In this document: positions 16,586 to 27,299 of the stretch, piece by piece
Layout of the letters: every line of letters begins with the position of its first letter
Numbering within the stretch: position 1 is the first letter of the stretch
Source: an uncultured delta proteobacterium
Lineage (GTDB): Bacteria > Desulfobacterota > Binatia > UBA9968
DNA length: 64,000 nt
Assembly (NCBI GenBank): GCA_963737905.1
Contig: CAVTUQ010000026.1
Location: 239,176-303,175 of the forward strand
Reading direction: 5' to 3'
The notes under the pieces: generated by a model
The model's database searches: none
What the model saw: the letters and a program-made list of their open reading frames with translations, nothing else
Told to the model about the DNA's origin: nothing
Program-made: the position numbers and the translations under genes

Positions 16586-16621
16586 AATTCGAATTTTCAG
16601 ACACTTTTGGAGGAGGTGGGA

Positions 16622-18043
16622 ATGCTCTATCGCGACTTGCGTGGTTGGCTTGATGGGGTCGAATCATTCGGCGAACTCAGGATGGTGGAGGGCGCCGACT
16701 GGAATCAAGAGATCGGTGCTGTTGCTGAAGTCGCGGCACGCTCGGAGCCGCCACCGGCAGTGCTGTTCGACAAAATCAAAGATTATCCCGCTGGCCGGCG
16801 TGTCTTGACCGGCATTCACAATCCCACCCTCAAGCGCCAGTGCCTCACCAATCACCTGCCGCTTGATTACACACGCGATCAATTCATCGACGCATGGAAA
16901 AAACGGCTCAACCATCCAGTTTTTCTGCCGCCGCGCGTCGTCCCGTCGGGCCCGGTGATGGAAAACGTTTTCGAAGGAAAAGAGATCGATCTGCTGTCAC
17001 TGCCGGTTCCTTTCTGGCACGAAGGCGATGGCGGCAGATATATCGGCACTCTCGATGTCACAATCAGCCGCGATCCGGAGGAAGGCTGGGTGAACTTGGG
17101 CTGCTATCGTGTGATGGTGCACGACCGCGACACGTTGGCGCTTTACATCTCGCCGGGACATCATGGCAACATTCACCGGCAGAAATACTTCGATCAGGGA
17201 AAGCCGTTTCCGGTCGCGATCAGCTTCGGTCCCGATCCGTTGCTTTGGTACTTCGGCCAGATGGATGTGCCACCAGGGGAGTCAGAATACGACTATGCCG
17301 GTGGGGTTCGCGGCGAGCCTTACGAAGTCATCATAGGAGAACATACAAAACTGCCGCTACCCGCGTATTCCGAAATCGCGGTGGAAGGCGAGGTCCTACC
17401 CGGAACGAAAATTCCGGAAGGACCTTTCGGCGAGTTTACCGGCTATTACGCCGGTGGTCTCCGTTCCGAGCCGATCCTGAAGGTAAAGCGCCTCATGTAT
17501 CGCAACAATCCGATTATCACCGGCGCACCGCCCTATCGCCCGGCCCCCGGAGCGGAAAACAATCTGATTCGTGCGGCCTACATATGGGATTACCTGGACA
17601 AGGCGGGTGTCCCGGATGTGAAAGGAGTCGCGTATTATCAAACCCGCTTGTTGGTCGTTGTGGCAATCAAGCAGCGCTATCCCGGTCATGCGAAACAGGC
17701 CGTGGCGATCGCGTCGCAGTGCCGCGCGGCTGCGCTTTTGACCCGTTACGTGGTCGTCGTCGACGACGACATCGACATCTGGGACAGTAACGAGCTGCTC
17801 TGGGCGCTTTGCACGAGAACCGATCCGGTGAAGGATATCGATATTTTGCGCCGTTGCTGGAGCAATCCCATCGACCCGATCATCCCGCCGAGCGAGCGTG
17901 GGTTTCAATCTCGCGGGCTGATCGACGCATGCCGCCCCTATGAATGGATGAACGAATTTCCCGCGGTGTCCGGGGCGAGCGCGGAGCTGAAGGAGAAAGT
18001 TATCAAGAAGTTCGGTGCGAGCCTGGCGGGGAAAAGAACCTAG
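16622..18043 (+). CDS. UbiD family (prFMN-dependent) decarboxylase
   Basis: PAVLFDKIKDY, DGGRYI, NLGCYR, EGPFGEFTGYY, VVVDDDID motifs. Confidence 0.93.
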   Translation: MLYRDLRGWLDGVESFGELRMVEGADWNQEIGAVAEVAARSEPPPAVLFDKIKDYPAGRRVLTGIHNPTLKRQCLTNHLPLDYTRDQFIDAWKKRLNHPVFLPPRVVPSGPVMENVFEGKEIDLLSLPVPFWHEGDGGRYIGTLDVTISRDPEEGWVNLGCYRVMVHDRDTLALYISPGHHGNIHRQKYFDQGKPFPVAISFGPDPLLWYFGQMDVPPGESEYDYAGGVRGEPYEVIIGEHTKLPLPAYSEIAVEGEVLPGTKIPEGPFGEFTGYYAGGLRSEPILKVKRLMYRNNPIITGAPPYRPAPGAENNLIRAAYIWDYLDKAGVPDVKGVAYYQTRLLVVVAIKQRYPGHAKQAVAIASQCRAAALLTRYVVVVDDDIDIWDSNELLWALCTRTDPVKDIDILRRCWSNPIDPIIPPSERGFQSRGLIDACRPYEWMNEFPAVSGASAELKEKVIKKFGASLAGKRT

Positions 18044-18264: not shown

Positions 18265-19215
18265 ATGAAATCATGGCGACTAGTGGCGGTTGCGCTGGCG
18301 ATGCTGATTATCGGTCTTCGCGCGTTCGTAAGCGCGCAGGAACTGAAGAAGCCACTGGAAAGAGTCCGGCTCACGGTGCCGGCCAAATCATTGACCTTTG
18401 TCCCTTACTATTTCGGCAAGTCACAGAGGCTTTATGAGAAAGAAGGGATCGATCTGGAGCTCATCGTCATGCGGCCGCCGATCGGCGTCACTGCCTTACA
18501 GGCAGGAGAGGTCGATTATTCTGCTGCCGGCGGTCTCTCGGTTCGCGCGGCGATGAAAGGGCTCCCTCTCAGAACGATCATGTTCATTCAGACCCGGCTA
18601 AGCTTCAGCCTTATCGGCCAGCCGGGAATGGTACCTGCACGAATAAAAAACGTCGCCGTCAGCGGCATCGGATCTTTGGCGCACTACGCCGCCATCACCG
18701 TAATGAAAAGATTGGGTAATGAAAAAGTCGCCTATATTTCGACCAATACCACGGGCAACAGTTACACCGCCTTATTGGGCAAAGCCGCGGATGCTGTGAT
18801 ACTCACTCCGCCGTACACGTCCATGGCGACCCTGGCGGGCTATCCCGATCTGGGAAACACCTTCGACGTGCGTGACCTGCAGGGCGGTTTGGTTGCGAGG
18901 ACGACTTACATTCAAGATCACCGCGATCAAGTAAAATCCATGATTCGGGCGACGCTTCGCAGTATGGATATCATCATGAAGAACGAAGCCGAGGTTATTT
19001 CCTACCTCCAAAAAGATTTTGGGCTGGAACCGAAAATCGCCGCCGACACTTATAAGATCCTCAAGCAAGTCGTAAATTCGGACGGCGACATCGAGGAGCC
19101 CGTCTTTAAATCTATCATCGATAAGATCAGGCAAGAATCGGGGGTCGCCGCCGAAGTGCCTGCCGACCGGCTGGTCGATTTATCGATTTTGCGCGAGGTG
19201 CGGAGGGAAAAGTGA
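18265..19215 (+). CDS. NMT1/THI5/SsuA-like ABC substrate-binding protein
   Basis: Signal peptide, YEKEGIDLEL, ALQAGEVDY, C-terminal LVDLSILREV. Confidence 0.85.
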   Translation: MKSWRLVAVALAMLIIGLRAFVSAQELKKPLERVRLTVPAKSLTFVPYYFGKSQRLYEKEGIDLELIVMRPPIGVTALQAGEVDYSAAGGLSVRAAMKGLPLRTIMFIQTRLSFSLIGQPGMVPARIKNVAVSGIGSLAHYAAITVMKRLGNEKVAYISTNTTGNSYTALLGKAADAVILTPPYTSMATLAGYPDLGNTFDVRDLQGGLVARTTYIQDHRDQVKSMIRATLRSMDIIMKNEAEVISYLQKDFGLEPKIAADTYKILKQVVNSDGDIEEPVFKSIIDKIRQESGVAAEVPADRLVDLSILREVRREK

Positions 19216-19851: not shown

Positions 19852-20581
19852 ATGGCAGAGGCGATAAAAGCCCGGATCGGGTTTGTAAGCGGCGGCAGCA
19901 GCGCGATGCCACACTACAATAGCTTTCTGCCGTTGATTCCAGAGGAGGTGAAGTTAGAGCACGAGGGATTGGAGCTTTATCGAGAGTCGCTCTACCAGAT
20001 TGCGGACAAGAAGGATCATATCGTTCGCCGAGTCCAAGAGTGTGTGACGAACAAGCATTGGGATGGAGTCATTCTTACTGCGGCGCCGACCGAAGTCCTC
20101 AACCCGGGCTTGTACGACGCTCTGAAGGAGACGGTATCCGTCCCTTTTACAACGGCATTCCACGCATGCGTCGTCGCCCTGAGCATCTATGCGGCGAAGC
20201 GGGTTCTTTTGCTAACGCCCTTCGATGAAAAACTGAATGAATTGATCTGCCGGCATCTCGTGGGCAAGGGGGTTACGGCCGTGGCCCCGCACCCGTTCAA
20301 GGAACTCGGCGTGCCTAAACGCATGACACCTGACGAAGTGTTTGCGTTAACGAAGCAATGTCTGAATCCGGTGGACCCCGTCGACGCCATCTATTTTCAG
20401 GGCGCTGTTCTCGACCCGATCAAGGTCTTGGAGAAGATTGAAACAGAGCTCGGGTTGACGGTCATTGCCAGCAACCCCGCGATGCTGTGGTATGTACTGT
20501 CAAAACTAGGGCTCTGCCTATCCGATGAGCGGCTATGGGAGGCTGCTGCGAGAGTGGCCGAAGCTGCAGGGCGGGTTTTAA
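19852..20581 (+). CDS. Maleate isomerase/AMDase-like homolog (extra base near 20514; corrected C-terminus ...AYPMSGYGRLLREWPKLQGGF)
   Basis: LLTPF, IYFQGA, IETELGLTVIASNPAMLW; the family GYGRLL motif is in the +1 frame, ending at TAA 20579-20581. Confidence 0.8.
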
Positions 20582-20593
20582 ACCCGCCCCTAC
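20566..20593. repeat. GTAG-type REP palindrome
   Basis: GCAGGGCGGGTTTTAAACCCGCCCCTAC between convergent genes. Confidence 0.65.
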
Positions 20594-20641
20594 AGGATTC
20601 CCGTTTTTTACAGAAATGACCTCTTGGTGCCGATAGTTTCA

Positions 20642-21700: not shown

Positions 21701-22105
21701 ATGCGGGTCGTCGGAATTGTCGTCGGCATATTGATTATCGTCGCCGGCTACTTCTGGGTGGTGCTCAAGTGGAACTACTCCACCGGTGAGCGTGCCGGCT
21801 GGGTGCAGAAGTTCTCGAAGAAGGGCTGGTTCTGTAAAACCTGGGAAGGCGAGATGGCGATGGTCTCGATGCCGGGCGCAGTGCCGGAGAAGTTTTACTT
21901 CACCGTTTGGGACGACGGGGTGGCCGGTGAGCTAAACAAGGTCATGGGGAAGCGTGTCTCTCTTCACTATGAAGAAAAGGTCGGCTTGCCCACCTCGTGT
22001 TTCGGCGAGACGCGCCACTATGTGACCCGTGTGACCGGGGTGGAAGAGATTCCGCTCGCTCCCGGTATCGTCGTGCCGACACCGGCACCGTCAGCCGCGC
22101 CGTAA
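21701..22105 (+). CDS. Conserved hypothetical membrane-anchored protein
   Basis: N-terminal TM helix then YSTGERAGWVQKFSKKGWFCKTWEGE...LHYEE...CFGET. Confidence 0.75.
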   Translation: MRVVGIVVGILIIVAGYFWVVLKWNYSTGERAGWVQKFSKKGWFCKTWEGEMAMVSMPGAVPEKFYFTVWDDGVAGELNKVMGKRVSLHYEEKVGLPTSCFGETRHYVTRVTGVEEIPLAPGIVVPTPAPSAAP

Positions 22106-22306
22106 TCGCCGTAATCTTTTTTAGATCCGACAAGGAGTGATTTTTCAATTCTCCCAGCTTGCGCGGTCGATGACAGGGCCGAGATTTGTGTAACCGGACT
22201 GCGACTGATTGCCAACGAAGGACATCTAATCGGTGATAAGTTGCAATAGTATGTCCGCGGTCTAAATGTAAGGTAGTTTAGTCGCTTCGTAATCTGCGGA
22301 AATCAT

Positions 22307-23518
22307 ATGCTAGAAAGCGGAATATCTAAGCCCGAAGAAGTGAGCAAGCAGATTGCCAGAGAAGAGATTCTTGCCCGGTTGAGTGATCCGTCTCTTTTGC
22401 TAGTGAACGTGATGCCGAAAGAAGCATTTGAGGAGGGTCACATACCGCGTTCGCTTAATTTGCCGCTGGCGGAGATCGAGACAAAGGCACGCCAGGTTTT
22501 TCCGGAGATCGGCCGGGAACTACTAATCTATTGCGGTGGTCCAACCTGACCCCTGGGCCAGCAGGCGGTCGGCCTGCTTTTAGGTATAGGCTATAAAAAT
22601 ATCCGGCACTATGTCGGGGGCATGGCCGATTGGGTGGAGAAGGGCGGGCCGGTAGAAAAGATGGATTTGCCCGTGACGAGCCTCTCGCCCAGGCAATTCA
22701 GAAGAGGGGAGACTTCGAAAACTTGGTCCTGGTCGCGATGGCTCGACATGCTCGCCAATTGGCCGTTGGACCGTTTGGTTTTTTTCTGGCTGGGGATGAT
22801 CCTTGCTTTTGGCTTCATTTATTGGGGCGCCGGCATAGGTATGGGGTGGGGACTGCAAGCCGGCAACACCTCCGTCAAGCCTGATTTCGGCGGTCTCGTC
22901 ACTTCCATCTATTTCAGTTTTGTGACGGCGTTGTCCATCGGCTACGGCGATGTGATTCCGGTAGGACCTTTGAGAATTCTTGCTATCGTCGAAGGGGCTA
23001 CGGGTCTCTTGATCTTCGGCTGTCTGGTTTCAAAGCTCGTGTCTCGACGGCAAGAAGAGCTGACGGAGGAAATTCATCGCACGACATTCGAGGATCGATT
23101 GGATCGGGTGCGTACCAACCTGCATCTGGTGTTTTCAGATCTGGGCGCTGTGCTACAACTGCAGATGGAGCAAGGCGCGTTGCCCGGGCAAGTTCTGCGG
23201 CGGCTTGAAAGTACAGTGCGGGTTTTTCGTGGGGAAATGCAGACGATTCATGATTTGCTGTACCGCGCTCAGGTCCTGCCTGACGAGGAAGCGCTAGAGT
23301 CGCTGCTGGCGAACCTGGCGATCTGTCTTCAGAGCGTTATCGACCTGCAAACTGCGCAACTAAACGGACAGCAGCGATCCCAGCCGCTTGACGCCGGGTT
23401 GCACGCCATCAGCAATCTCGCCAACGAAATCTGCGGTGAATGCGTGCCACGCACCTATGCGCCCGCCATGAAACAGTGGATGGATCAAATTCAAGAACTC
23501 GCTCGCAAGATCGCGTGA
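22307..23518 (+). CDS. Rhodanese (Sec-containing) / 2-TM potassium channel fusion, 403 aa with UGA read-through
   Basis: ORFs 22307-22549 and 22622-23518 are in one frame separated only by TGA 22547; read-through gives GHIPRSLNLP...IYCGGPT-U-PLGQQAVGLLLGIGYKNIRHYVGGMADW (complete rhodanese), then TM-YFSFVTALSIGYGDVIP-TM. Confidence 0.85.
22560..22578 (+). promoter_or_regulatory. Bacterial SECIS-like hairpin
   Basis: AGCAGGC-GGTCG-GCCTGCT, 7-bp perfect stem with GGT loop, 10 nt after TGA 22547-22549. Confidence 0.75.
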
Positions 23519-23539
23519 TTCAGCCAAGCTCGAAAGCCC

Positions 23540-24553
23540 TCAATTGCAGCGGCCTTCCTTTACCAGCTCTTCCACCAGGGTCGCATCGACCAGCTCTTGC
23601 GCTTTCATCCCGCGCGCGGCGGGCAGGGTTGATGCAACCATCTCGATTCCGAGCTCGACTCCCTCAATCTTAGGGTAGGGCCGCGCCGGTATCACCTCGG
23701 TGGTATAGAGGCGGTAAAGATATTCCAAAGCCGCTGGATCGCGTCCCCGTTCCGATTTCGTCATGATCTCCAGCGCCTTCAGCCGGTTCTGTTTCGCGCC
23801 AACAATGCCTTCGCAGATACCGCTCATAAAACTTTTCGCCTCTGGCCTGCGCGTTTTGAGGAAAGCCACGGTCATGGCGTAATCGGCGCCACCTCCGGCG
23901 TAGATATTGAGTCGTTTATGGTCGGCGAGGATGCGAAAATTTTTGATCTGCCCGGTTTTCTCCAGGTCGTACATGGCTTCTGCGGTAACCAAAGTGCCGG
24001 ACAGTTGACCCGAAGTCAGAGCGGTGGCGCGATCGGCGCTCCGAGCATCGTGGGAATGGACCAAAGTCACGTCCCGGTCGGGATCAAGTCCGAGTTTTCT
24101 CAAGGCCAGCCGCGTCAATCGATCGGGCGTGCTGCCCGGTTCACCGGTGCCCACTTTCTTACCCCTAAGATCCTCCGTTCGCGTGATCGCGGAGTCGACG
24201 AGCAGGACCGAGTAGTTATAGCCCGAGTTTGCGACGAGGGTCAGAGCCGGTCCGCCGGTGGCGTTGTTCTGGATGACGTGATTGGAACTCACAACGAAGA
24301 TATCTCCGCCGCCGTTTTTCATCGCCGCGAGGAGCTTCTCGTTTGAGCCCGGATTCGTCCACGAAAGCTTCAGGCCGTTTCTTTCAAAAATGCCGGTGTC
24401 GCGAGCGAGATATAAGGGCAGTTTGCTGATGTTCCAGGGAGGATAATAGATGACCTTAACCGTGTCGGTTTGTGCGAAGGACGACGGGCAGCCCATCAGC
24501 AAGGGGATAAGCGTGACAATAAACCGGAGTCGGTTGGGTTTGCGGCTGCCCAT
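23540..24553 (-). CDS. NMT1/THI5/SsuA-like ABC substrate-binding protein
   Basis: LYLARDTGIFERNGL, EDLRGKKVG, LGLDPDRDV. Confidence 0.85.
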   Translation of the reverse strand: MGSRKPNRLRFIVTLIPLLMGCPSSFAQTDTVKVIYYPPWNISKLPLYLARDTGIFERNGLKLSWTNPGSNEKLLAAMKNGGGDIFVVSSNHVIQNNATGGPALTLVANSGYNYSVLLVDSAITRTEDLRGKKVGTGEPGSTPDRLTRLALRKLGLDPDRDVTLVHSHDARSADRATALTSGQLSGTLVTAEAMYDLEKTGQIKNFRILADHKRLNIYAGGGADYAMTVAFLKTRRPEAKSFMSGICEGIVGAKQNRLKALEIMTKSERGRDPAALEYLYRLYTTEVIPARPYPKIEGVELGIEMVASTLPAARGMKAQELVDATLVEELVKEGRCN

Positions 24554-24566
24554 GGGGACGATCTCC

Positions 24567-26279
24567 TCATTTCTTGAAAGAGACAATCAGATAAGCGGGG
24601 GCCGACTTCGAAGCGAAGTCGCCCTGGCCCACGACTATGACGGTGTACGTTCCCGCTTCCTTGATGGCCTGTTGCGGGACCGTCGCCTCGATTTCCCCGG
24701 CGCTGACGAAGCGAGTTTCCAGCTCTTTGCCGTTGAGGGTAACCTTGTGAAAGCGATCGAAGCCTCGGCGAGCGGAGACCTTGACCTTGAGGATCGCGGT
24801 GGAGCCTTGAGTAATAGCGTGCGGCGAAATCTCGATGTCTCGCGGCGTCGCCCGCCACGGACGAATGTTTGGAATCGGGTTCTTGTAATCCGCATGAAAG
24901 TCGCTATCGGCGACCTCGCCGTTCAGGACGACCAGTTTCACGTTCTGAACCGCCCACATGTCTTTTAGGGGATCCCCCTCCACGGCGATCAAGTCGGCGA
25001 CCTTTCCCGGTTCCACGGTGCCGAAGTCCTTGTCCTTGCGGAATGCCTTGGCGACGTTGATCGTCGCTGCTTGAATGGCCTGCATAGGCGTCAAGCCGGC
25101 TTCGACGAACATAACCATTTCTTGATGGACCCCGAGGGCGGGCAGTCCGTTATTCGGGTCCGATCCGGCCCTGATGATACCGCCGGCTCGTACGAACCGC
25201 GCGATGAAATCGGCAATCTTGCTGTAGCCCTCGCGAGTCCGTTTAAGGCGATCGGCTGGAAACTTTGCGTAGCGATCGTACTGTCTCAGGGTTTGTTCGC
25301 GCATCACCGCCGGCAAGTATGCCGCGCTGGGATTATCTAGAATCGACAATTCTCTTTCCTTGAACCGCTCGGCGCTCGGCGAGAGCGGACGAAACCAGGT
25401 GGCGATGGTCGGACTCCAAGAGACCTTTTTTTCCGCCATCGCTTTGATGATCTTGTCGAAGTTCTCCGGTTCGTAATAAAAGGCGACGTCCGCCGTATTG
25501 ATCTTGCCGGTCATGCGGAGCTCGTGAACTTCCCAACGCTTTTTGACATCCGCGATGGAAGTCATTCCGGGCGCCCAGTGATGCTCAACGCCGGCGAACC
25601 CCGCTTCCGCTGCAAGAAAAACATCGAGACAGTGACAGGTTACAGGAAGACCAAGCCGGTTGGCTTCCTCCGCGCCCGCTTTGATCGCCTCGGGGGAGAC
25701 GTATTCGTTGAACTTGATGATCTCAATGCCCGCTTCCTTCTTTTTTCGGACGATCGCGCGCGCATCTTCAGGACTCTTGATCAGGTAACCGCTCTCAGTG
25801 CGCAACGCCCAAGGCGGCGGCGGTCCGACCAGGCGCGCTCCCGTCGACCAGATGCGCGGGCCGCGGATCTTACCGAGATTGGTTCCATCGCGCTGGGCCA
25901 TGGTCCACTCGTCATCGTTTTGCGTGATGTCCGGACAGGTGGTGATGCCGAGATGCAAGTAGAGCTCACCGACAAAATCGAGCAGATGGCAGTGGCCGTC
26001 AATGAGGCCCGGAAGAATTGTCTTTCCTTTCACGTCAATGATACGGCTTCCCTTTGGAACTGCGACCGCGCCACGCTTCCCGACCGCCTTGAACCGATTG
26101 CCTTCGATGACGATAACCGCGTCCTCCAGCGGAGGCCGGCCGGTTGCGTCGATGAGTGTTCCACCCTGAATGACCAGCGGTGTCGCGTTCTGCGCTTCGC
26201 TCCGCGCCGGGAGCAGCCAGACGAGTATGGAGATGAGGAGCACTGTGTCCAGCCATCTTAAACGATCGCGAATTTCCAT
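24567..26279 (-). CDS. Secreted metal-dependent amidohydrolase with C-terminal Ig-like (IPT/TIG) domain
   Basis: Signal peptide; PGLIDGHCH, AGSD, GTVEPGKVADLIAVEGDPL; beta-rich C-terminus. Confidence 0.88.
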   Translation of the reverse strand: MEIRDRLRWLDTVLLISILVWLLPARSEAQNATPLVIQGGTLIDATGRPPLEDAVIVIEGNRFKAVGKRGAVAVPKGSRIIDVKGKTILPGLIDGHCHLLDFVGELYLHLGITTCPDITQNDDEWTMAQRDGTNLGKIRGPRIWSTGARLVGPPPPWALRTESGYLIKSPEDARAIVRKKKEAGIEIIKFNEYVSPEAIKAGAEEANRLGLPVTCHCLDVFLAAEAGFAGVEHHWAPGMTSIADVKKRWEVHELRMTGKINTADVAFYYEPENFDKIIKAMAEKKVSWSPTIATWFRPLSPSAERFKERELSILDNPSAAYLPAVMREQTLRQYDRYAKFPADRLKRTREGYSKIADFIARFVRAGGIIRAGSDPNNGLPALGVHQEMVMFVEAGLTPMQAIQAATINVAKAFRKDKDFGTVEPGKVADLIAVEGDPLKDMWAVQNVKLVVLNGEVADSDFHADYKNPIPNIRPWRATPRDIEISPHAITQGSTAILKVKVSARRGFDRFHKVTLNGKELETRFVSAGEIEATVPQQAIKEAGTYTVIVVGQGDFASKSAPAYLIVSFKK

Positions 26280-26324: not shown

Positions 26325-27299
26325 TTACTTGTAAACGGAATCGATGAAGCCGCTGCGCTCGAGCTGGTCCACCAAGGAGGTGTCCACAAAACTCTCTGGC
26401 TTCGGCGTTGGAGTTTTGTCTTTGAGCTGGTTCTCGATCATAAACTGAATAGCTTTCATGGAAGGGCGCGGAACCTTTTGCAAGGTCGGCGCATAATCCT
26501 GCCAGGTTCCTTCCAATAGCTCATCTTCGGTGATCTTGCCGTATTTCCCCAAGACACGCTTGCTGTATTCCTTGTCGGTTCGATAGCGATGCATGCCGCG
26601 GATGAATCCACGCATGAAGCGCATGACGGTATCGCGCTGCTGGGCGATAAAAGATCTCGTGGTGATCACGGTGCCGTTCACGTCCTCGAAGCCGAGGTCG
26701 GCAAACTTCACCAGCTCTCGCATTCCCAGTTGGGCCGCCTTGGGGTAAAGCGGGTAACTGAGAGCTGCGACTTGTACAGCCCCGTTCTGCAATGCCGCGA
26801 AAGCTTCAGGCTGGGCGCCAAAAGTGAGAATCGCGACATCTTTAGTCGGCTCCAAACCGAAATGCTTCAAAGCTATCCGCACGACCTGGTCGGAGGTGGA
26901 ACCGAAGGTGGTAATGCCTGCTCTCTTCCCCTTCAAGTCCGACGGCTGTTTAATTTCGGGCCGAGCCATCAATCGAAAGGGCGAAACTCTCCCGGTGGCG
27001 GCGATGATAACGACGTCGCTGCCGGCGCCTGTGGCCGCTATGGCAGCCGATGCTCCTGCTTGAATGATCGGCGCGCTGCCTCCGAGCATCGCAGCCACCA
27101 TTCGGGTGCTCCCACCCACACGGATCAGTTCGACATCCAGTCCTTCCGAAGCAAAATAGCCGGCTTCCTTGGCGACCCAAGCAACGGCCCAAGTGCCGGC
27201 AAAGCTCGGGTACAAAACACGCATGGAGATCGCAGCGCCAAAGCCTTGGGATGGAAATGCACTGATAATAAGCGCCAACAATGTTATGAGTCGCAGCAT
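26325..27299 (-). CDS. NMT1/THI5/SsuA-like ABC substrate-binding protein
   Basis: WVAKEAGYFASEGLDVEL, DLKGKRAGIT, FVDTSLVDQLERSGFI. Confidence 0.9.
   Translation of the reverse strand: MLRLITLLALIISAFPSQGFGAAISMRVLYPSFAGTWAVAWVAKEAGYFASEGLDVELIRVGGSTRMVAAMLGGSAPIIQAGASAAIAATGAGSDVVIIAATGRVSPFRLMARPEIKQPSDLKGKRAGITTFGSTSDQVVRIALKHFGLEPTKDVAILTFGAQPEAFAALQNGAVQVAALSYPLYPKAAQLGMRELVKFADLGFEDVNGTVITTRSFIAQQRDTVMRFMRGFIRGMHRYRTDKEYSKRVLGKYGKITEDELLEGTWQDYAPTLQKVPRPSMKAIQFMIENQLKDKTPTPKPESFVDTSLVDQLERSGFIDSVYK

Follow-up and report, generated by a model that had tools for sequence, protein, structure and literature searches.

Five rhodanese forms with selenocysteine (Sec, U in motifs) are recorded in a 2026 catalogue of selenoproteins from prokaryotes: UxxS, UxxG, CxU, UxxG and UxxxxU, the fifth being TsoB, a rhodanese/DsbD fusion-like selenoprotein (PMC13188914). 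The same catalogue includes several Sec-containing transporter subunits. Channels are absent from it, and neither 'channel' nor 'potassium' appears anywhere in its text (PMC13188914). Here we describe a gene of an uncultured delta proteobacterium (Binatia; contig CAVTUQ010000026.1 of assembly GCA_963737905.1) that very probably encodes, judging from the sequence, a Sec-containing fusion of a rhodanese domain to a potassium channel, as one gene and not two. It lies at 22307-23518 of the analysed stretch of 64,000 nt (the window). An earlier reading of the letters alone (the sequence-only reading) had proposed a 403-aa Sec-dependent fusion channel at this place, and the conserved TGA, the Cys forms, the hairpin and the selA, selB and selD genes reported below all speak for that proposal.

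By analogy, TsoB (NF045694) is the nearest described counterpart. Both proteins have a pair of chalcogen residues spaced x4 apart in the active-site loop of a rhodanese domain, with Sec in second position, and both are integral membrane fusions; TsoB is also the second-best NCBIfam match to the rhodanese part (E 4.8e-7). However, the match scores 28.3 bits against a cut-off of 805, hence the protein is not a member. The first position of the pair is Sec in TsoB but Cys here, and the membrane partner is a DsbD-like electron conduit there but a K+ pore here. Forms 1-4 of the catalogue (UxxS, UxxG, CxU, UxxG) likewise place Sec in or beside the active-site loop of a rhodanese fold, but they differ in their motifs, with Sec at the catalytic position or 2 residues after it, and none is listed with a channel. 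Against the family of the CxU form (NF041203, LYCAU) the protein scores 16.5 bits, compared with a cut-off of 115; its motif is C-x4-U and it is not a member.

On the channel side, the protein resembles K+ channels of the KcsA/MthK type, KirBac3.1, Lmo2059 and SthK in its order of first transmembrane helix (TM1), pore helix, filter and second transmembrane helix (TM2), and in the filter signature T-x-x-[ST]-x-G-[YF]-G-D. As in other two-transmembrane (2TM) K+ channels, a cytoplasmic domain on the inner helix would be able to act on the gate. The channels named above sense through RCK, CNBD or Kir C-terminal domains, whereas the protein described here has an N-terminal Sec-rhodanese and a helical domain with a CxxC motif. 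A cytoplasmic rhodanese on an inner-membrane protein is also found in Escherichia coli YgaP, which has two transmembrane helices. Structures of its rhodanese domain are available (5hbl, 5hbo, 2mrm), and the rhodanese cysteine can be S-nitrosylated and S-sulfhydrated (titles of Protein Data Bank entries). YgaP differs in having no pore signature, no Sec, and another domain order and partner (fold match Z 13.4). Eukaryotic Kv channels couple gating to redox state via the Kv-beta oxidoreductase subunit. The shared idea is redox-coupled K+ gating by an enzyme-like domain, but these unrelated proteins have their sensor on a subunit of its own, and selenium plays no part.

In the literature open to full-text searching, nothing relevant came up for queries combining selenoprotein or selenocysteine with rhodanese and with potassium or ion channel, and no such family is found in the main text of deep-Sep; the supplementary tables of selenoproteome surveys may nevertheless list such a protein under another name. 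These searches and the catalogue agree with the sequence-only reading, which knew of no described Sec-containing K+ channel. We regard the proteins described here as a real, conserved selenoprotein family and an apparently undescribed combination of known parts. To our knowledge, selenoproteins are nearly all soluble redox enzymes.

An in-frame TGA and a downstream hairpin

Two open reading frames (ORFs) share one frame. The first (22307-22549, + strand, 80 aa) closes with TGA, and the second comprises 298 codons at 22622-23518. Re-translation of 22307-23518 with TGA read as U yields 403 residues with a sole internal TGA, codon 81, in keeping with the single TGA at 22547 that had been noticed before. 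The active-site loop of the read-through product is I-Y-C76-G-G-P-T-U81-P-L-G, so the TGA falls just after the YCGGPT loop, also as noticed. The genome match of the read-through protein covers residues 1-403 with 1 TGA inside. TGA is the commonest ordinary stop near the gene, ending 7 of 12 neighbouring ORFs (11 of the 12 are Pfam-supported) as well as the gene itself, which excludes a genome-wide reassignment of TGA. A scan of 22050-23700 gave 0 promoter sites and two terminator-like sites, no more than in shuffles.

The TGA is not a sequencing or assembly error. The sequence-only reading had proposed confirming it in reads, and contigs from three independent studies of soil metagenomes (runs X1, X2 and X5; 95-99% likeness) cover 22547-22549 without a difference. 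The nearest variant to the TGA in those contigs is 22543 A>C, which is synonymous.

Beyond this genome, a scan of one genome per species identified 23 related loci, 20 of which reach the TGA site, making 21 with the window. All 21 have TGA, never TAA or TAG, at the same codon and in the same frame after Y-C-x-x-x-T, and the frame runs on into the channel. The 20 loci come from records named Candidatus Binatia, Deltaproteobacteria/Syntrophobacter, Methylomirabilota, Gemmatimonas and Acidobacteriota. Within the window's own order, 22 of 123 genomes match, and exactly 1 TGA is present in each of the 17 matches (17/17) that span the site; the figures become 20/121 and 16/16 without the unpublished genomes G006 and G456. 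These order-level matches overlap the 20 scan loci, so the two counts are not independent. The family is patchy and not phylum-wide, since in an even sample of the phylum 1 of 401 genomes matches at E <= 1e-30, and that genome is the window's own. By these comparisons the recurrence of TGA, frame and hairpin in 21 of 21 loci is more than chance would be expected to produce.

Coding continues past the TGA. The stretch P-L-G-x-Q-A-V-G-L-L directly after it is conserved while third codon positions vary, and the interval from the TGA to the pore has no conserved start codon. In the 28-row alignment of the family (A2; a second alignment, A4, has 10 rows), Met107 is replaced by Ile or Leu in L035, L036, L038, L040 and L041, so an independent start at this position is not conserved among the Sec forms. 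One Acidobacteriota locus (L036:3001-4257) has Pro/Ser/Arg-rich low-complexity sequence between rhodanese and pore helix and an unrecognisable TM1, which looks like a frameshift or assembly error in the record.

Homologues that need no recoding were identified among the best 150 cluster representatives at 50% identity, sorted by motif classification. The sequence-only reading had suggested looking for homologues with Cys or TGA at this codon. The Sec column, which holds TGA in the 21 loci, is occupied by Cys in 12 of the 14 cluster representatives that have the whole fusion in one open frame; the remaining two show Ser and Gly, one each. In A2 it is Cys in 7 of 9 full-length forms and U or C in 26 of 28 rows. 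Pfam detects both Rhodanese and Ion_trans_2 in the three Cys-type single ORFs checked (P0125, P0128 and P0146). The family therefore has the Cys/Sec homologue pairs that serve as a criterion for a bacterial selenoprotein, and in the alignments the column alternates between TGA and Cys. The Sec forms cluster in a tree of the 28 forms (1 of 500 shuffles is as low), which does not by itself demonstrate a single origin. On the comparative evidence, the fusion of rhodanese and channel is ancestral to the family, which occurs in several phyla.

Public gene calls split the gene. At least 1088 protein clusters match, and the best 120 of the 1088 are truncated channels, 225-328 aa long with 56-79% query coverage. 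All 12 public calls inspected begin in the C-terminal piece of the rhodanese just past the stop, and 44 of the best 150 cluster representatives start within the rhodanese domain.

The published model of the bacterial Sec insertion sequence (SECIS) specifies a loop of 3-9 nt with G in the first two loop positions, a stem of 4-16 bp, a distance of 16-37 nt from UGA to loop, and a minimum free energy of -7.5 kcal/mol or lower (PMC13188914). The window hairpin (AGCAGGC / GGTCG / GCCTGCT), which begins 10 nt past the TGA, lies within all four model constraints, with a 5-nt GGUCG loop, 7 bp, 17 nt from UGA to loop and -13.2 kcal/mol. The sequence-only reading had the 7-bp stem and the 10-nt spacing right, but took the loop as GGT when it is the 5-nt GGTCG. 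Hairpins are present at 21 of 21 loci (free fold -9.1 to -15.0 kcal/mol; loop GGUCG or CGUGG). Over the 21 sequences the stem positions pair in 93.2% of 147 cells, compared with 28-46% when the partners are slid, and a consensus fold was obtained. The SECIS loop of E. coli fdhF is likewise GGUC. An Rfam scan of the window at gathering thresholds gave 0 matches, which neither finds nor excludes a SECIS.

The genome containing the window (G000) encodes selA (607 bits), selB (410 bits) and selD (381 bits), all above curated cut-offs. Its selD has one in-frame TGA and is predicted to be a second selenoprotein gene. Four of five Sec-form genomes of other phyla contain selB; it was not found in the genome of L036. 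Thus, of the sel genes that had been named as a check, selA, selB and selD are present, and selC was not found in the 87%-complete assembly.

Domains of the read-through product

The rhodanese domain spans the TGA. PF00581 matches over model positions 3-101 of 102 (E 4.5e-12; 46.8 bits against a gathering threshold of 22.2), and because this is nearly the whole model, the domain needs sequence from both sides of the TGA. The AlphaFold2 model of the protein (mean predicted local distance difference test score, pLDDT, 86.6; 92-95 around the Sec site) predicts a complete rhodanese fold, which matches solved rhodaneses at Z 15-17 with a root-mean-square deviation of 1.5-2.4 over 100-111 residues (Foldseek E 5e-7). 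Cys76 aligns with the YCGG cysteine of the solved rhodanese 6mxv, and the loop here is 2 residues longer. It takes about 30-37 codons after the TGA to finish the fold, and not the 24 of the sequence-only reading.

Downstream of a variable linker, Pfam identifies Ion_trans_2 (PF07885) at residues 196-246 (E 3e-12; 46.7 bits against a gathering threshold of 22.5). This match and the AlphaFold2 helices agree with the TM-pore-TM arrangement, TALSIGYGD filter and helical tail recognised earlier. Residues F203, S204, G214 and D215 are invariant in A2. The filter has Ser where Thr is commoner; either residue occurs there among relatives, and a Ser hydroxyl is able to serve at that site. The best solved sequence matches of the pore are the K+ channels Lmo2059, SthK and KirBac3.1, although these matches are weak (E 4.5e-5 to 8e-3) and confined to the pore.

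The best-conserved stretch of the whole protein comes just after TM2 (RRQEELTEEIHRTTFEDRLDRVRTNLHLV). In A2 it takes the pattern R-Q-E-E-L-T-E-E-I-H-R...R-V-R-T-N-L-H-L-V, with Q249, E250, H257, R264 and R267 invariant. Past residue 289, the model adds tail helices at 294-320, 327-351, 359-374 and 386-402. No Pfam or NCBIfam family matches residues 247-403, and the ESM Atlas yields unnamed clusters only. In fold searches with the whole model, the match lists were filled by the rhodanese domain; in five structural-match rows the aligned range stretches from the rhodanese domain to residues 378-386. Both termini of 2TM K+ channels are cytoplasmic, and with this topology the rhodanese domain and the tail would sit together beneath the pore. 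The long aligned range in the five structural-match rows hints that the model sets the CxxC loop next to the rhodanese domain, which we do not count as evidence. Docking of the rhodanese on the C-terminal domain, using natural Cys-form sequences from A4, gave no answer (score 0.00) and speaks neither way.

Two variants of this architecture were noted. In a sub-branch of Cys forms, P0137 (565 aa) and P0136 (455 aa) have gained a C-terminal AhpC/TSA peroxiredoxin domain (E 2.8e-25 in P0137, partial in P0136). Their filters are degenerate (…SASYGD / …SSSYGD) and Pfam no longer detects Ion_trans_2; the sub-branch may represent a redox derivative that has lost conduction. This fusion is the sole domain-fusion hint of thiol-peroxide chemistry. 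Relatives such as P0173, P0176, P0177, P0185 and P0190 have the pore and the CxxC tail, start at TM1 and lack any part of the rhodanese. These may be independent channels, or gene calls cut short.

A proposed sensor and its alternatives

How might the parts work together? We propose that the hairpin at 22560-22578 directs SelB and Sec-tRNA to insert Sec at UGA 22547-22549. The predicted product is a 403-aa inner-membrane protein with a cytoplasmic single-domain rhodanese, a flexible linker, a 2TM K+ channel core, presumably tetrameric, and a cytoplasmic helical domain. The C-x4-U pair in the cradle loop of the rhodanese could carry a persulfide or close to a selenenylsulfide, and would switch among selenol/thiol, selenenylsulfide and persulfide states. 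The linker and the C-terminal domain would transmit the change of state to the gate, and K+ flux and membrane potential would then track the thiol or reactive-sulfur state of the cell. Given that no internal start is conserved, translation would end after 80 residues without selenium, and no channel would be made.

A role of the pair in sensing redox state or sulfane sulfur (or selenium), with relay to the gate, is a tentative suggestion, which we rate somewhat short of an even chance. Consistent with a redox role, all 28 alignment rows retain C76, C376 and C379, and one sub-branch carries a peroxiredoxin domain. The CxxC could act as partner in a relay or form a metal site, perhaps together with H257; its link to the C-x4-U loop is uncertain. 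More doubtful is the fullest version of the idea, a first natural Sec ion channel whose gate is ruled by the selenol/thiol pair of the rhodanese, whose synthesis depends on selenium, and whose CxxC forms the second half of the relay or a metal switch.

Several observations weigh against a selenoprotein or against the sensor role. No RNA runs are listed that cover the stretch. Covariation in the hairpin is modest: 1 of 7 pairs shows compensatory changes, in 2 sequences (synonymous CAA and TTG), and the observed covariation values are equalled in 21-27 of 500 shuffles. Because the same stem codes for the conserved QAVGLL, selection on the protein may account for part of its conservation. With Ser or Gly in the Sec column of two full-length homologues, not every member can depend on the second chalcogen. 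The relatives that apparently lack a rhodanese have the CxxC as well, so it need not be the partner of the C-x4-U loop. Among the loci compared, no genes of sulfur, selenium or redox metabolism are conserved as neighbours. Lastly, tRNA-Sec (selC) was not found in G000 (87% complete, 46 contigs). The best match to Rfam RF01852 there (46.6 bits) is a tRNA-Leu according to ARAGORN, which at default settings reports 44 tRNAs, none of them SeC, and an nhmmer profile built from the tRNA-Sec of 10 relatives found nothing better than E 0.04.

With lowered thresholds, ARAGORN returned thousands of spurious candidates in G000. Of 20 relatives, 15 have a tRNA-Sec (64-79 bits), among them the same-genus genome G002 (13 of 18 without the unpublished G006 and G012), and ARAGORN calls tRNA-SeC at all 10 of the relatives' loci that were fetched. 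In relatives this tRNA is often on small contigs. It may be missing from G000 through an assembly gap.

The main rival to the sensor concerns only the role of the domains and leaves the identity of the protein the same. In it, the rhodanese is a membrane-tethered enzyme, either a sulfur/selenium-transferase or a C-x4-U selenenylsulfide reductase, and the channel is a tetrameric anchor or works independently. Cys76 is invariant, and the fold is like that of the active sulfurtransferases GlpE, TSTD1 and the rhodanese domain of YgaP (Z 13-15). TsoB, a UxxxxU rhodanese selenoprotein with a membrane domain, is already catalogued (PMC13188914), and the peroxiredoxin fusion of one branch would suit an enzymatic redox relay. 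However, strict conservation of the filter signature and the pore helix in 26 of 28 rows argues that the pore is under selection and is no mere anchor. Moreover, the best-conserved stretch of the protein lies directly after TM2, where the gates of 2TM (KcsA-type) channels are located, and no substrate-supplying neighbour genes are conserved. We consider a tethered enzyme possible but unlikely.

A second alternative gives the selenium atom no chemical role: the UGA would act chiefly as an attenuator that responds to selenium, or be decoded by a near-cognate Trp or Cys tRNA. The failure to find tRNA-Sec in the assembly would fit, as would the Cys, Ser and Gly forms, which make a selenium-free function possible. 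But where the TGA is absent its place is taken specifically by Cys, in 12 of the 14 full-length forms, and the TGA stands 5 residues past the catalytic Cys in the active-site loop, with the spacing of UxxxxU in TsoB; a model-conforming hairpin accompanies it at 21 of 21 loci, and selA, selB and selD are present. Together these points make this alternative improbable. Least tenable, and in our estimate highly improbable, is the arrangement that public gene calls annotate, one of them (P0088) under the source name 'potassium channel family protein', in which an 80-aa rhodanese remnant is followed by a separately translated K+ channel: a decaying remnant would not retain TGA, frame and N-terminal half over 21 loci of several phyla, the called 'channels' open with a conserved C-terminal third of a rhodanese that could not fold alone, and, contrary to the independent start at ATG 22622 or 22661 and never-fused homologues that the sequence-only reading had weighed against itself, Met107 is unconserved and the Cys forms are single ORFs.

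Gene neighbourhood and meaning of the family

Coordinates of the selenoprotein gene, its parts and the other genes discussed are given in Table 1. Neighbours in the window include an alpha/beta hydrolase, three NMT1-type binding proteins, an amidohydrolase and a 134-aa ORF, some of which are common to close relatives only. The NMT1/THI5-like, amidohydrolase and decarboxylase genes have no apparent link to the channel. No counterpart of the 134-aa ORF was identified in the 28 related loci compared.

Other loci have different neighbours. MetE-like genes (Meth_synt_2, the catalytic domain of cobalamin-independent methionine synthase) adjoin the selenoprotein gene in 11 loci, and none is near it in the window. 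They lie on opposite sides of the gene in two groups and are 23-26% identical. We treat this adjacency as coincidence until shown otherwise, although it may reflect a link to sulfur amino-acid metabolism. Six Acidobacteriota loci (L037-L041 and L044) have a gene for CvpA (Colicin V production protein, PF02674).

Table 1. Positions of the gene, its predicted parts and associated genes (window coordinates unless a locus or contig is named)
Feature	Coordinates	Strand	Remarks
Whole gene	22307..23518	+	403 codons and terminal TGA; one internal TGA read as selenocysteine
Rhodanese domain	22361..22639	+	PF00581 at residues 19-111, structural matches about 10-120; spans the TGA
Cys76 (TGC), catalytic cysteine opening the active-site loop	22532..22534	+	Invariant in 28/28 rows of A2
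Sec81 (TGA), C-x4-U	22547..22549	+	TGA in 21/21 loci; unchanged in contigs of 3 studies
Hairpin resembling a bacterial SECIS	22560..22578	+	7-bp stem 22560-22566/22572-22578, loop GGTCG 22567-22571
Linker (residues 119-141), variable, low confidence	22661..22729	+	pLDDT <50 at 121-137; gapped in A2
TM1 (154-178)	22766..22840	+	AlphaFold2 helix, preceded by short helix 142-150; W161 and W173 nearly invariant
Pore helix (194-209) and filter	22886..22951	+	Filter T207-A-L-S-I-G-Y-G-D215 at 22925-22951, residues 207-215
TM2 (222-246)	22970..23044	+	One long AlphaFold2 helix, 222-289
C-terminal helical domain (247-403), 157 aa	23045..23515	+	No known family; contains RRQEELTEEIHRTTFEDRLDRVRTNLHLV
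CxxC, C376-G-E-C379	23432..23443	+	Loop before last helix; invariant in 28/28 rows of A2 and 10/10 of A4
134-aa ORF	21701-22105	+	Directly upstream, same strand; no Pfam family
NMT1/THI5-like periplasmic binding protein	18265-19215	+	One of three paralogues within 9 kb
NMT1/THI5-like periplasmic binding protein	23540-24586	-	One of three paralogues within 9 kb
NMT1/THI5-like periplasmic binding protein	26325-27299	-	One of three paralogues within 9 kb
Amidohydrolase	24567-26279
Arylmalonate-decarboxylase-like	19852-20619
UbiD-family decarboxylase	16607-18043
selA, selB, selD (L009, L011, L019)	G000 contig C29:71024-75669	-	Side by side
MetE-like, directly upstream	L023:1395-2516		Counterparts in L024, L026, L027, L028, L031; six Binatia/delta loci
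MetE-like, downstream	L037:4472-6255		Counterparts in L038, L040, L041, L044; five Acidobacteriota loci
CvpA, ending just upstream	L037:2366-2977; L040:2375-3010; L041		Same strand as the selenoprotein gene
CvpA, about 1.6 kb upstream	L038; L039; L044

A dedicated family model would mend the split calls in genomes of soil Binatia, Acidobacteriota, Methylomirabilota and related bacteria, and the natural Cys forms offer ready controls for experiments. A K+ channel that bears Sec would join two fields, ion channels and selenium biology. For ion-channel research it would provide a natural sensor module, the C-x4-U rhodanese, and for selenium biology an output in membrane excitability. If the sensor proposal is true, reactive sulfur species, oxidants or selenium compounds would act directly on membrane potential and K+ flux in these bacteria.

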